Below, one piece after another: positions 1,651 to 25,554 of a stretch of DNA of 64,000 nucleotides. Numbering within the stretch: position 1 is the first letter of the stretch; every line of letters starts with the position of its first letter. A model generated the notes under the pieces. That model did no database searches. It saw nothing but the letters and a program-made list of their open reading frames with translations, and was not told the DNA's origin. The position numbers and the translations under genes were made by a program. This DNA comes from Patescibacteria group bacterium (GTDB taxonomy: Bacteria; Patescibacteriota; Patescibacteriia; SG8-24; DYFX01), in the NCBI GenBank assembly GCA_038062835.1, contig JBBTWH010000001.1, positions 42,982-106,981 of the forward strand, read 5' to 3'.

Positions 1651-2553
1651 TCATCGCTTTGCGCCCTTGCAGTCGGGGCAGTCCACCTCGCGCTTCGCCT
1701 TGTAGGTCTCCTCCTTCTTGCCGTGGCACATGCAGCAGGCGAACTGGCCGTTCTTGACGGCGTCGTTCGCCTCTCCCCAATCCCGTCCGGCTCCGATCTT
1801 CTTCGTTCCGCTGCCGCCGCAGAAATCGCACGGCGGCCAACCTTCGAGTTCTTGCTCGCTCTGCGGAGGATTGGGCATCGACATCTTCCCCGTGCCGCCG
1901 CAGTGATGGCAGGGGTCCGTCCCGCTGCCCTTGCAGTGCGTGCATTTGACGGTCGCCTCGTATTCCTGCTCGATCTTGCCGCTGCCGCCGCAGCGCGCGC
2001 ACGGCTTCTTTTCCTCCGCCTTCGTCCCGCCGCCGCAGCGGCCGCACTTCCCGCTCTTCTTTTCCCGCATCCGTTTCACCCACTCCCAAAGGCCGAGGAG
2101 GGCGAGCATCGTGCCGATGGTCCAGGCGGCTGTTTCGAGTATCGGCTGAAGCGAGTCCGGGGCGTATTCGGACGTCTCTTCAAGGAATTCCTGGGCGTTC
2201 TCGAGGGGGAACTCTTCCGGTTCCGCCGCCGCGCTCGCGTCAGGCATCGGGATGTTCGGCGTCGGCGGAGCCGAGGGTGCCGGGAAGGCCGACTGCTCGG
2301 ACGGCGCAGTCGCCGTGGACGTTTCCGGCTCCGCGGCCGTATCCGACGGTTCAGTCGCGCTGATGGCGGCCGGAGTCTCTGCGTTTTCCCTGCCGCAGCC
2401 CCAGTGGTCGCCGCCGGTCGGGATGCACATCACGCCGTACCCCGTCGGACATTCGAGCGCCGGCTTGGCCTGTTCGTCGCAATTAACGGCGGCGAAAGCC
2501 GTCCCCGGGAGGAGCGCGAGCGCGAAGGAAATCGAGACGAGGAATCTCTTCAT
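1651..2553 (-). CDS. membrane-anchored DnaJ-type (CxxCxGxG x6) zinc-finger protein without J domain
   Basis: Signal peptide MKRFLVSISFALALLPGTAFA, a Cys-rich ectodomain, a TM helix (WTIGTMLALLGLWEWV), then six CxxCxGxG repeats. TGaTATAAT lies 13 nt upstream of the ATG. Alternative start at 2565. Confidence 0.6.
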   Translation of the reverse strand: MKRFLVSISFALALLPGTAFAAVNCDEQAKPALECPTGYGVMCIPTGGDHWGCGRENAETPAAISATEPSDTAAEPETSTATAPSEQSAFPAPSAPPTPNIPMPDASAAAEPEEFPLENAQEFLEETSEYAPDSLQPILETAAWTIGTMLALLGLWEWVKRMREKKSGKCGRCGGGTKAEEKKPCARCGGSGKIEQEYEATVKCTHCKGSGTDPCHHCGGTGKMSMPNPPQSEQELEGWPPCDFCGGSGTKKIGAGRDWGEANDAVKNGQFACCMCHGKKEETYKAKREVDCPDCKGAKR

Positions 2554-2628
2554 ATCAGAGGTCATTATATCAATATCAGCCGTTTCTGCTATACTGGAGG
2601 TGTTTAACTATATAGCGATACGCGAGGT

Positions 2629-2781
2629 ATGGAGAACCAGCCCGTGACCGTAAAGACGAGGACGAGCATCTCGACCAGGACGAAAGTCATCGTGGCCCTG
2701 GCGCTCATCACCGGGGCGGTCATCGCCTACGCCGTAGTGGTGGCGCGCGTTCCAGGCCGATCGATATCGATTCCGGCGTAG
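2629..2781 (+). CDS. small single-TM protein, 'MENQP' paralog 1 (50 aa)
   Basis: MENQPVTVKTRTSISTRTKVIVALALITGAVIAYAVVVARVPGRSISIPA. This is one of three paralogous mini-ORFs with conserved upstream sequence (TGcTATACTGGAGGTG). Confidence 0.5.
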   Translation: MENQPVTVKTRTSISTRTKVIVALALITGAVIAYAVVVARVPGRSISIPA

Positions 2782-2832
2782 GACTGCCTTAGACGGGACT
2801 GTAAGTATCTAACCGAAGAATCACCGCAAGGT

Positions 2833-2997
2833 ATGGAGAACCAGCCCGTGGTCACGAAGACGAAAACGCGCGTCGCGACGCGAACGAAAGTCATCGTCGC
2901 TTTGGCGCTGCTCGCCGCGGCCGTCGTCGCCTACGCCGTCGCCAGCACGGTGAGCCTGAAAGCGCGACGCCCAGGAGATTGGAGCGTCCGCGGCTGA
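2833..2997 (+). CDS. small single-TM protein, 'MENQP' paralog 2 (54 aa)
   Basis: MENQPVVTKTKTRVATRTKVIVALALLAAAVVAYAVASTVSLKARRPGDWSVRG. The N-terminal 35 aa are conserved with paralogs 1 and 3. Confidence 0.5.
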   Translation: MENQPVVTKTKTRVATRTKVIVALALLAAAVVAYAVASTVSLKARRPGDWSVRG

Positions 2998-3056
2998 CGT
3001 CCGCGCTCCAAGAACGGAAAACCCGCCGGTGCTCGGCGGGTTTTCTTCGTTAGACT

Positions 3057-3383
3057 TCAGCCGCGCATCGCCAGGACGACGAAGAGCAGGACCGTGAAGG
3101 CCGCGAGCTGGCCGATGGTGCAGACGACCATCATGACGCCCTCGCGCTTCTTGCCGTCGATATAGAGCATGAGCGGCTTGCCGAAGATGAGCATGCACAT
3201 CGTCGCGGCGGACGTCACGAGCAGCAAAAGGAATCCGACGGGGGCGAGGGCGCTATCCGGCTTACCGTCCCCATCGCCGAAGATCCTCTCGATGTTCTGC
3301 ATGACCGTCCCCACGGCCGCGACATAGAGGATTGCGCCGGCGGAATAGGGCAGGCTTCGCTTGAAGGTCTTCATGTCGAGCAT
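3057..3383 (-). CDS. small integral membrane protein (3 predicted TM segments)
   Basis: 108-aa ORF with hydrophobic segments, lying between the MENQP paralogs. Confidence 0.45.
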   Translation of the reverse strand: MLDMKTFKRSLPYSAGAILYVAAVGTVMQNIERIFGDGDGKPDSALAPVGFLLLLVTSAATMCMLIFGKPLMLYIDGKKREGVMMVVCTIGQLAAFTVLLFVVLAMRG

Positions 3384-3413
3384 AGGTCTCGGTTATCGGT
3401 GAATCATGAGGGA

Positions 3414-3731
3414 CTATTTCTTCCGCTTTCCCGATCGCCTGGCGAGCACTCCTCTCACTGAAGGACTGATCGCCTTGTCCGCGCGATGGATGCAGCCGAT
3501 CCAGCAGCAAGGCCGGCGCTTCCCCTCCTTGAGCTGATCGACCATCCGCTCGATATGTTCCTTCCTCGTCTCGTCTTTCTTGACGAAGGTGACCCAGCAG
3601 ATCCACTCGTTACGTGCGAGTGGCGTCAGATCCTCCCAGACTCCCGCCGCCGCCCTATCGGAGACGAGAGCCTTTAGCATGTCCGAAGGCATCGTATGCG
3701 CGGAGCCGCTGGAGATCGTCTTTTTGGGCAT
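3414..3731 (-). CDS. YdeI/OmdA-family protein (bacteriocin-protection family)
   Basis: The C-terminal motif NEWICWVTFVKKDETRKEHIERMVDQLKEGKR matches the OmdA-domain consensus. Confidence 0.55.
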   Translation of the reverse strand: MPKKTISSGSAHTMPSDMLKALVSDRAAAGVWEDLTPLARNEWICWVTFVKKDETRKEHIERMVDQLKEGKRRPCCWIGCIHRADKAISPSVRGVLARRSGKRKK

Positions 3732-3830
3732 AAGTCGAATTTACATCACGGAAAGCGAGATGCGCAAAGTATACCAATTTCAACCTATTACGCTATACTG
3801 AAGGTGGCTAATCAAAGAATCATCGTCAGC

Positions 3831-3989
3831 ATGGAGAATCAGCCCTTCGCGGTAAAAACGAAGACGCGCATCTCGACCAAGACGAAGGTCGTCGTCGCCC
3901 TGGCGCTCATCACCGGGGCCGTCATCGCCTACGCCGTCGCGGTCGAGATCAAGGCGCGGCGACCCGGAGATTGGTCCATCAGCTCCTGA
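3831..3989 (+). CDS. small single-TM protein, 'MENQP' paralog 3 (52 aa)
   Basis: MENQPFAVKTKTRISTKTKVVVALALITGAVIAYAVAVEIKARRPGDWSISS. cgCTATACTGAAGGTG lies 31 nt upstream. Confidence 0.5.
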   Translation: MENQPFAVKTKTRISTKTKVVVALALITGAVIAYAVAVEIKARRPGDWSISS

Positions 3990-4023
3990 ACAGACCGTGC
4001 AGATACCGCGACGTATTCATCAC

Positions 4024-4071
4024 AAAAGCCAGCCATGGGAATGGCTGGCTTTTGATCAGACGCGTGGGTCG
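4024..4071 (+). repeat. repeated terminator-like element copy 1 (aaagccagcc-loop-ggctggcttttga + ACGCGTGGGTCG)
   Basis: A hairpin plus T-run, then a conserved 12-mer. A second copy lies at 6113-6160. Confidence 0.5.
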
Positions 4072-4167: not shown

Positions 4168-4515
4168 ATGAATCCTTGGGATAACCCGGAAAACTTTTTT
4201 CAGGGGGAATACCTTGGGCTTAAGCGCCGGTACTACGAGGGGCTCAACCTGCGGTTCGAGACGCCGCCGCCGGATGATCGCATGGAATACGGAGTCCGGT
4301 ACGTCATCGAGATCGGCTCTCGATTGCCGGTCGTGAAACCGGTGAATGGAATCGTCTACGCGGAATTCGTCCCTGTCCGATTCCGTGTCCGATTACATGG
4401 AACGTGTCCGAATGAATGGGTCGATGACTGTTATCATAAGGAGGGTCATCCTGAAACAGTCGGAGAATCAACCATCGACTTCCCGGTCAAGATGTTGCCG
4501 CCGCAGAAACGATGA
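4168..4515 (+). CDS. hypothetical protein (115 aa)
   Basis: AAGGAGGA lies 4 nt upstream of the ATG. Confidence 0.5.
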   Translation: MNPWDNPENFFQGEYLGLKRRYYEGLNLRFETPPPDDRMEYGVRYVIEIGSRLPVVKPVNGIVYAEFVPVRFRVRLHGTCPNEWVDDCYHKEGHPETVGESTIDFPVKMLPPQKR

Positions 4516-14643: not shown

Positions 14644-14731
14644 GGAGGGGTCGCATAGTGGTCGAGTGCGCTCGCTTGGAAAGCGAGTATACCGCAAGGT
14701 ATCGGGAGTTCGAATCTCCCCTCCTCCGCCA
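14644..14731 (+). tRNA. tRNA-Ser(GGA), type II with long variable arm
   Basis: Acceptor GGAGGGG/CTCCTCC, anticodon arm CTCGC-TTGGAAA-GCGAG, T-arm GGGAG-TTCGAAT-CTCCC, discriminator G and an encoded CCA. Confidence 0.9.
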
Positions 14732-25071: not shown

Positions 25072-25554
25072 TTAGCAGCCCGGGGTCGCATCGTCGGCCT
25101 GAATGCCGTTCTGGTTGGCGCAGTTGGCGCCGGCGCCGAGCTGGCCGGTGGCTCCTTCCAGGCTGAAGGTGATCCAGTACGTGCCCGAGCCGGTGGCGCT
25201 GTTGTAGGTGTACGGCAGGCCGGCGGGGGTCGGGTTCGAGGGGACGAGACCCATGTAGATCGTCGTGCAGTTCGACGTGTCGCCCTGGAACACGGCTCCG
25301 CTGTTGTTGCAGAGGACGTCATCCGCAGCGCCGCCGAGGACGGTGGACGTCTCAGTCGGGTAGTTGTTCGACTCTGAGAACGCGAGCTCGAGGGCGGTCT
25401 GGATCTGGCGGATGTCCGAGACGCGCTTGGCGTCGCGGGAACGCTGGCGGGCGCTGTTAAGGGCGACGACGGCCAGGGTGGAGAGCAGACCGATGATGGC
25501 GATGACCACCAGCAGTTCGATAAGGGTGAAACCCTTGGACTGTGAGCGCTTCAT
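25072..25554 (-). CDS. pilA: type IV pilin (PilA-like paralog 2, probable major pilin)
   Basis: KG|FTLIELLVVIAIIGLLSTLAV. It has its own terminator and an AT-rich upstream region. Confidence 0.8.
   Translation of the reverse strand: MKRSQSKGFTLIELLVVIAIIGLLSTLAVVALNSARQRSRDAKRVSDIRQIQTALELAFSESNNYPTETSTVLGGAADDVLCNNSGAVFQGDTSNCTTIYMGLVPSNPTPAGLPYTYNSATGSGTYWITFSLEGATGQLGAGANCANQNGIQADDATPGC

Follow-up and report, generated by a model that had tools for sequence, protein, structure and literature searches.

Three paralogous small open reading frames in a Patescibacteria genome that probably encode single-helix membrane proteins

A 64,000-nt stretch from a Patescibacteria group bacterium (GenBank assembly GCA_038062835.1, contig JBBTWH010000001.1, positions 42,982 to 106,981), hereafter referred to as the window, has a GC content of 55–68% and carries three related short open reading frames (ORFs) whose predicted products begin with the residues MENQP. 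On balance, we favour the view that these MENQP ORFs are genuine paralogous genes for bitopic membrane proteins of about 50 residues, which may act as accessory or regulatory subunits. Judging by the sequence, the genes probably arose by local duplication of a cassette of ~200–230 bp made up of a short leader and the ORF behind a back-to-back promoter pair, and would be transcribed in two units, copy 1–copy 2 and copy 3, from housekeeping-type TATACT promoters, each unit ending at a predicted intrinsic terminator. The ORFs have exactly the coordinates proposed in an earlier note on this DNA, made without database searches, and all of them lie on the plus strand:

2629–2781, plus strand: MENQP copy 1, 50 aa, annotated as AAB554_00245
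2833–2997, plus strand: MENQP copy 2, 54 aa
3831–3989, plus strand: MENQP copy 3, 52 aa

The paralogy of the three ORFs, also proposed in that note, is borne out by a protein identity of 65–76% with 29 invariant columns in the alignment, and by a DNA identity of 76–87% over the first 113 nt of the ORF (repeat family D1). A tblastn search of the window with the consensus MENQP peptide recovered the three copies with E-values of 1e-12 to 1e-27; the next match was no better than E = 0.29, and no further copy was found in the 64 kb. The relatedness of the three ORFs is far beyond chance, and the window holds only these three copies. The C-termini had been described as divergent, which is true of copy 1, departing abruptly after Gly43, but not of copies 2 and 3, which have KARRPGDWS in common near the C-terminus. 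Since the last seven codons of copy 1 (RSISIPA) align with the upstream box of the repeat unit, with position-matched DNA identity of ~60%, they appear to run into the decayed promoter region of the next unit, and copy 1 looks like a unit cut off at a 204-nt tandem-duplication junction. Longer versions of copy 3 (61 or 97 aa), called from upstream GTG or ATG starts, show no conservation in the other copies. Copy 1 is identical to the NCBI hypothetical protein MEK7545487.1 (AAB554_00245, ‘Patescibacteria group bacterium’), and all three ORFs were picked up by gene callers on metagenome contigs; the earlier description of the ORFs as unannotated therefore applies to the ORF track then at hand, but not to copy 1 in NCBI or to the gene-caller output. 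The same DNA, 99.9–100% identical, is present on contigs from the Hainich groundwater well H41 and other runs.

Comparison of the three copies indicates that the ORFs are very probably protein-coding. The pairwise ratios of nonsynonymous to synonymous substitution rates (dN/dS) in the sense frame were 0.42, 0.30, and 0.36, with higher values in all five other frames for each pair, and all indels among the copies are multiples of three. Variable sites fall on the first, second, and third codon positions in the proportion 13/7/20 (chi-square p = 0.04); 14 codon columns differ only synonymously, while conservative amino-acid changes account for 10 of the 15 changing columns. The GC content at third codon positions (GC3) is 0.83–0.88, versus 0.81 for the 37 long genes of the window, and the codon log-likelihood per codon is 0.18–0.56, versus 0.45 ± 0.23 in 50-codon windows of real genes. 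The ATG start and the ORF length are kept across the copies, the conservation of the ORF exceeds that of its promoter and upstream region (87% versus 76%), and copy 2 has lost its promoter, yet retains the leader, ATG, frame, and full length. A population-level dN/dS analysis was also tried, and no single-nucleotide polymorphisms were found in the MENQP ORFs among the 99.9–100% identical metagenome contigs.

The earlier note had allowed that conservation of the DNA alone might point to an RNA element. The pattern among the paralogs is coding-like in its dN/dS values and in-frame indels, and a structured RNA was rejected given the absence of covariation across the three copies (RNAalifold covariation term +2.1, unfavourable) and of any Rfam family at the locus, where the search returned just sub-threshold, terminator-driven matches.

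The basic N-terminus and single transmembrane (TM) helix noticed in the initial reading of the sequence are well reproduced. Residues 20–38 constitute a 19-residue hydrophobic segment, the predicted TM helix, with a simple Hessa sum of -1.4 to -2.3, corresponding to favourable insertion, and the AlphaFold2 model consists of one helix (residues 16–40) with both ends unstructured. The N-tail of 19 residues, MENQPxxxKTKTRISTRTK, is polybasic and rich in Thr; its basic residues alternate with Thr/Ser, and its net charge is +3 to +4. The polar C-tail of 12–16 residues has a net charge of +1 to +3; it contains ARRPGDWS in copies 2 and 3 and is truncated after ARVPG in copy 1. According to the positive-inside rule, the N-tail would be cytoplasmic and the C-tail would be located outside. 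The TM helix has a conserved (G/A)29-x3-A33-x3-A37 face of the small-xxx-small kind typical of helix packing. An A33-Y34-A35 motif followed by Val (AYA-V), which fits the -3/-1 rule, is invariant in all three copies; nevertheless, an uncleaved anchor is favoured because of the long n-region, the TM-length core, and the continuity of the predicted helix through this motif.

By analogy, one could hypothesise that the MENQP proteins serve within the membrane as small subunits with an accessory or regulatory role, the TM helix packing against a larger membrane protein or self-associating, and the basic tail resting against the anionic inner leaflet, on the model of MgrB-, AcrZ-, and MgtS-type proteins. 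The closest functional analogy appears to be with small single-TM accessory and regulatory proteins of the MgrB/AcrZ/MgtS/PmrR/Prli42 type; it is an architectural one, and no membership is claimed. The likeness comprises a length below 60 aa, a single TM helix, an own promoter and terminator, a lineage-restricted distribution, the lack of a Pfam domain, a small-xxx-small packing face, and action presumably by binding a larger membrane protein. In contrast to these proteins, with which they have no sequence homology, the MENQP proteins carry the 19-residue polybasic, Thr-rich tail before the TM segment and occur as three paralogs in one locus. They are best described as orphan small membrane proteins, apparently under constraint.

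As a class, small membrane proteins suffer from systematic under-annotation, and next to nothing has been learned about them in Patescibacteria (the candidate phyla radiation, CPR), bacteria with tiny genomes whose biology hinges on the cell envelope and contact with the host. The MENQP family is a concrete candidate for a lineage-specific envelope function, or for the origin of a new gene and its spread via local duplication. The practical yield is modest, with three credible small genes added to one metagenome-assembled genome.

The earlier note placed each copy downstream of a conserved TATACTG(G/A)AGGTG element. The exact element, GCTATACTGRAGGTG, is present only before copies 1 (2588–2602) and 3 (3792–3806), and before copy 2 the corresponding site reads GACGGGACTGTAAGTAT, a decayed version. 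Nor is the element a special one: when the window was scanned for TA[TG]A[CA]T upstream of an ORF, TATACTg turned up before many genes, often just 6–10 nt from the ATG. On this evidence TATACTg is the -10 consensus of the genome, and the conspicuous motif before copies 1 and 3 is an ordinary promoter box of the organism. The -10 boxes are located as follows:

2590–2595, plus strand: -10 box TATACT of the copy 1–copy 2 transcript, context TGCTATACTG
3794–3799, plus strand: -10 box TATACT of copy 3, where the TATACTg recurrent before many window genes is seen
54863, 52864, 59083, 17141, 6986, and 38051, minus strand, and 59843, plus strand: positions of ATGs with a -10 box ending 6–10 nt before them, from the promoter scan

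The copy 1–copy 2 transcript would start near position 2602, giving a leader of ~26 nt, and the predicted leader of copy 3 is ~25 nt long. Transcripts of genes with TATACTg at 6–10 nt from the ATG would be leaderless, and the proximity of -10 boxes to many ATGs, together with the occurrence of a Shine–Dalgarno-like motif in just 9 of the 37 long genes of the window, suggests that leaderless initiation is widespread in this genome. The GGAGGTG sequence was considered both as a Shine–Dalgarno motif and as a leaderless GTG start, and rejected: only copy 3 has the GTG in the reading frame of the ORF, and in copy 1 stops intervene.

A second conserved upstream box, TATAyCAATwTCArCC, precedes copies 1 and 3 and in both cases overlaps a -10 box on the minus strand, from which it follows that the repeat unit carries a back-to-back promoter pair. 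The genes and sites involved are:

2566–2581 (feature 2564–2581): upstream box TATATCAATATCAGCC of copy 1, its left edge overlapping the minus-strand TATAAT at 2564–2569
3770–3785 (feature 3768–3785): upstream box TATACCAATTTCAACC of copy 3, overlapping the minus-strand TATACT at 3768–3773
1651–2565, minus strand: gene for a 304-aa protein, left of copy 1 and divergent from it
3057–3383, minus strand: gene for a 108-aa membrane protein with three helices predicted by AlphaFold2; context, not a MENQP family member
3414–3731, minus strand: OmdA-domain gene, 105 aa (PF13376, E = 3e-16); context, not a MENQP family member

The minus-strand TATAAT at 2564–2569 is the probable -10 box of the divergent 304-aa gene, whose true start is probably the second ATG (2553), 10 nt past the box. 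Likewise, the minus-strand TATACT at 3768–3773 is the probable -10 box of the OmdA/108-aa operon, giving it a 36-nt leader. The remaining elements of the two MENQP units are:

2782–2832, plus strand: spacer between copies 1 and 2, with a decayed -10 box (GGGACT) and the leader CTAACCGAAGAATCACCG
3017–3045: hairpin terminator after copy 2, a 12-bp stem with an A-run before and a U-run after it, common to the convergent 108-aa gene
4023–4054: hairpin terminator after copy 3, a perfect 14-bp hairpin with flanking A/U runs (z = -4.4)

No terminator was found in the 2782–2832 spacer, the -10 box there has been lost, and the leader of copy 2 is kept, being 15/18 identical to that of copy 3; the likely template for the translation of copy 2 is therefore a bicistronic copy 1–copy 2 mRNA.

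The distribution of the family was addressed by several searches. An exhaustive HMMER profile search of 1.84 billion representative proteins returned copy 1 and the 97-aa call of copy 3, with no real relative; a profile match to the tetratricopeptide repeat (TPR) protein P0003 was rejected as spurious. At this database size, the 52-column profile is blind to relatives below ~40% identity. A word-indexed protein search recovered copy 1 alone, no confirmed relative emerged from pattern scans of 185,579 GTDB species genomes, JGI metagenomes, and IMG/VR, and tblastn produced no match in phages or plasmids. Pfam, NCBIfam, PADLOC, PHROGs, and PDB yielded only sub-threshold matches to the TM segment (best E = 0.01–0.4). 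The exact sequence of copy 2 is absent from a collection of 15 billion proteins, although it was gene-called on the same contigs; such a collection is incomplete for small ORFs, which weakens the absence of homologs from protein databases when taken alone.

For this reason, the synteny search of DNA is informative. It covered 52 loci (~535 kb) in which homologs of the two neighbouring genes (304 aa and 108 aa) are found, with orthologs 75–84% identical, and included loci of Candidatus Uhrbacteria and the complete Patescibacteria genome CP129476.1, among others. Neither tblastn, nor a six-frame ORF search with hidden Markov models, nor blastn detected a MENQP-like ORF or DNA in these loci, so that the search for MENQP-like ORFs in related genomes suggested in the earlier note came out empty. 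At current sampling, the family thus appears to be an orphan, found so far in one Patescibacteria species. A 20–23-bit resemblance between RTKVIVALAL and the signal peptide MRTKIIVAFAL in loci L054–L058 was dismissed as noise, since the best random match in the other 527 kb scored 25 bits; it also lies partly upstream of the start of the matched gene. In these close relatives, the product of the gene just downstream of the 106-aa ortholog (L054 1203–1943; L055 1548–2018; L056–L058) is a secreted protein in which Hcp-like motifs are repeated (DYYLKLDGVEGES / AFIKFGGVEGET), a homolog of which was not found in the window.

Several observations weigh against the proposal that the MENQP ORFs encode membrane-embedded modulators. 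The evidence for constraint rests on ~45 aligned codons from three sequences in one nearly clonal population, the codon-position test gives just p = 0.04, and one antisense frame of copy 1 is slightly better in codon usage. No Shine–Dalgarno motif at canonical spacing precedes any of the three copies, which is no objection to coding, because most genes of the window are devoid of one. The synonymous divergence (dS) among the paralogs, 0.60–0.71, exceeds that between the 108-aa gene of the window and its orthologs in relatives without MENQP ORFs (0.24–0.26 for L011 and L013), which a simple story of a young family does not explain; the family could be older than these splits and lost or not assembled in the relatives, the mini-ORFs could evolve faster at silent sites, or the estimate could be too noisy on 50 codons. 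Finally, the modulator mechanism is pure analogy.

Among other explanations, the MENQP proteins could be type I toxin-like peptides that depolarise or permeabilise the membrane and whose synthesis is held down by an antisense small RNA, which we consider unlikely. Known type I toxins begin almost at the TM segment and carry their charges C-terminally, whereas a 19-residue basic tail precedes the TM segment of MENQP. The criteria of Fozo et al. 2010 comprise a length below 70 aa, a TM region, and a polar or aromatic C-terminal region (PMC2887945), as well as isolation, with flanking genes at least 400 nt away upstream and at least 250 nt downstream (PMC2887945). With 50–54 aa, a single TM region at residues 20–38, and the C-terminal RRPGDWSISS, the MENQP proteins agree with the former; the gaps up- and downstream are only 63/59 nt for copies 1–2 and 99/178 nt for copy 3, and the loci are not isolated. 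As in the Hok, Ldr, Ibs, Fst, TxpA, and ZorO families, which they also resemble in size, single TM segment, and polar/aromatic C-terminus, the MENQP ORFs are tandemly duplicated with a similarity reaching beyond the ORF into the flanks and have a narrow, lineage-restricted distribution. They differ from these families in the basic N-tail, the close packing, and the leader of only ~25 nt, which has no significant structure (z = -0.3 to -0.55), where a type I toxin would have a long structured one. Of the antisense small RNA that the earlier note proposed to look for, no sign was seen in the sequence: no TATACT-like -10 box is present on the minus strand inside or just 3' of any copy, and no known RNA was matched in Rfam. 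Homology is equally lacking, with no match to toxin families in Pfam, NCBIfam, PADLOC, or PHROGs, and only self hits in HMMER. No positive evidence was found for the likeness to type I toxins and membrane-active peptides suggested in the earlier note.

An alternative that we regard as quite unlikely is that the MENQP proteins are precursors of secreted peptides, with a Sec signal peptide of residues 1–35 cleaved after A33-Y34-A35, releasing cationic peptides of 15–19 residues (VAVEIKARRPGDWSISS and relatives) with a signalling or antimicrobial role, of a size like that of Phr/PapR/NprX. The invariant AYA-V motif and an n-h-c-like layout speak in its favour, and so does ARRPGDWS, which copies 2 and 3 both keep in the segment that would become the mature peptide. 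Precursors of Gram-positive pheromones match the total length of MENQP (50–54 aa), which adds to this. The Sec-dependent Phr/PapR/NprX pre-peptides of monoderm bacteria, of 40–57 aa, also have a basic N-terminus, a hydrophobic core, an AxA motif, and a short conserved C-terminal part. However, the n-region of MENQP, at 19 aa, is unusually long, the hydrophobic stretch of 19 residues has the length of a TM segment, and the AlphaFold2 helix continues through the putative cleavage site, with no helix-breaking Pro or Gly at positions -4 to -6. Moreover, the N-tail is the best-conserved part of the protein, which would be unusual for a mere signal peptide, and no gene for an RRNPP-type receptor, a processing protease, or an exporter was found nearby, a further difference from the Phr/PapR/NprX systems.

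It is similarly improbable, in our estimation, that MENQP is a young, species-specific, self-contained cassette of ~220 bp, copied locally and now supplying promoters to the 304-aa gene and the OmdA operon, whose products are membrane-active peptides. If this were true, the MENQP proteins would be either type I-like toxins, the first to be described from Patescibacteria, or peptides at the surface or secreted that serve an episymbiotic lifestyle.

Somewhat less credible still is that the ORFs are non-functional, being incidental or very young frames on a duplicated promoter cassette or on a non-coding RNA or DNA repeat, and that selection keeps only the bidirectional promoter now serving the 304-aa gene and the OmdA operon. 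The lack of homologs both in the 1.84 billion representative proteins and in the ~535 kb of related loci would fit, as would the back-to-back -10 pairs of copies 1 and 3, each facing real neighbour genes, and at the 63% GC of this genome open frames are common. On the other hand, the ORF is better conserved than the promoter part, the substitutions are frame-specific, the indels are in frame, and GC3 is gene-like. Copy 2 has kept its leader, ATG, frame, and length after the loss of its promoter, and an RNA structure has no support from covariation.

That the MENQP ORFs are regulatory leaders or arrest peptides, in which stalling at the C-terminal R-x-P-G controls terminator read-through, as copy 3 might do for the 115-aa gene at 4168, is highly improbable. 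Arrest modules of this kind are known in the form of RAPP-like motifs close to the C-terminal end of small TM or secreted proteins (PMC12992588), and MENQP resembles ApdA, ApdP, ApcA, and SecM (RAPP/RGPP/RAPG) in its small size, its N-terminal TM or signal segment, and its R(R/V)PG motif 5–9 codons from the stop; after copy 3, a hairpin terminator is followed by a same-strand gene 178 nt downstream. However, the second position of the arrest motif must be small (Ala/Gly), and the Ala of RAPG tolerated no substitution (PMC12992588), so that RRPG and RVPG, with Arg or Val at this position, fail it. In addition, the TM segment ends ~4 residues before the motif and would still be in the exit tunnel, where insertion force is not sensed; two of the three copies have no downstream target, copy 2 ending at the terminator common to the convergent gene; no alternative antiterminator pairing is evident; and the 115-aa gene has promoter-like sites of its own.

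Returning to the preferred reading, small membrane proteins acting as modulators, the relation of the MENQP genes to their neighbours remains to be described. As stated in the earlier note, copies of MENQP bracket the small membrane-protein gene and the OmdA gene, both of which lie on the opposite strand. The OmdA gene and the 106–108-aa gene are adjacent in the related loci L008, L013, L054, L056, and L057 and close to each other in L011 and L012; no MENQP ORF was found beside the pair in these relatives, nor in any of 39 genome loci. In L008, OmdA, the 107-aa gene, DUF1697, and the homolog of the 304-aa gene are all collinear, and the DUF1697 gene occupies the place taken by copies 1 and 2 in the window. 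The OmdA gene of L013 has its own near-leaderless TAGACT promoter and a tRNA gene upstream, at the place of copy 3; a tRNA gene with anticodon GTT (Asn) is found upstream of OmdA at this place in relatives (L013 3765–3991; L055 594–1211). The OmdA/108-aa locus is thus, by the gene orders compared, a rearrangement-prone variable region among relatives, and since these keep the pair without a MENQP ORF, the MENQP units are, on the same comparison, lineage-specific and were added at the edges of a gene pair that is itself conserved.

For the same reason, a toxin/immunity link to OmdA is unsupported, and the connection drawn in the earlier note between MENQP and the OmdA and membrane-protein genes fails on co-occurrence. 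With the MENQP direct repeats 998–1202 nt apart, the bracketing is most simply taken as a by-product of local duplication and not as evidence of toxin and immunity. As evidence of what the OmdA domain does, the Pfam label ‘bacteriocin-protection’ is also weak. The neighbours of MENQP, namely OmdA, the three-helix membrane protein, the zinc-finger membrane protein of 304 aa, and proteins without assignment, include no ABC transporter, protease, or modification enzyme that would indicate a bacteriocin or a ribosomally synthesised and post-translationally modified peptide, and the MENQP peptides themselves have no GG leader or other bacteriocin leader type; the bacteriocin reading of the earlier note finds no support here. 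Nothing tested supports a toxin, bacteriocin, or OmdA-immunity role, and in our opinion the MENQP proteins and the OmdA operon are not a toxin/immunity pair. An attractive but unsupported story is thereby removed.

Recognisable in the 304-aa protein are a signal peptide, a Cys-rich ectodomain, a linker rich in Pro and Ala, a TM segment, and, on the cytoplasmic side, DnaJ-like zinc fingers (CxxCxGxG); relatives conserve it at 45–62% identity, and their homologs begin at the second Met (MK...). The 108-aa membrane protein contains no Pfam domain. Its family is common to Patescibacteria and DPANN archaea (Woesearchaeota, Pacearchaeota, and Nanoarchaeota), with 37–44% identity (L028–L053), and ultra-small episymbionts of different domains may have this membrane protein in common. 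In two related loci, a 54-aa ORF with two predicted TM segments (MNAIRMKSVAYTNLAIFALFFG...), which is not a MENQP homolog, overlaps the stop of the 108-aa gene (L015 8324–8488, plus strand; L014 ~2173–2340). Small membrane ORFs that are mutually non-homologous seem to recur beside this gene.

Elsewhere in the window, a 160-aa ORF on the minus strand (25072–25554) has a type IV pilin-like N-terminus (KGFTLIELLVVIAIIGLL), and a tRNA-Ser (GGA) gene on the plus strand (14644–14731) is the only RNA gene detected.

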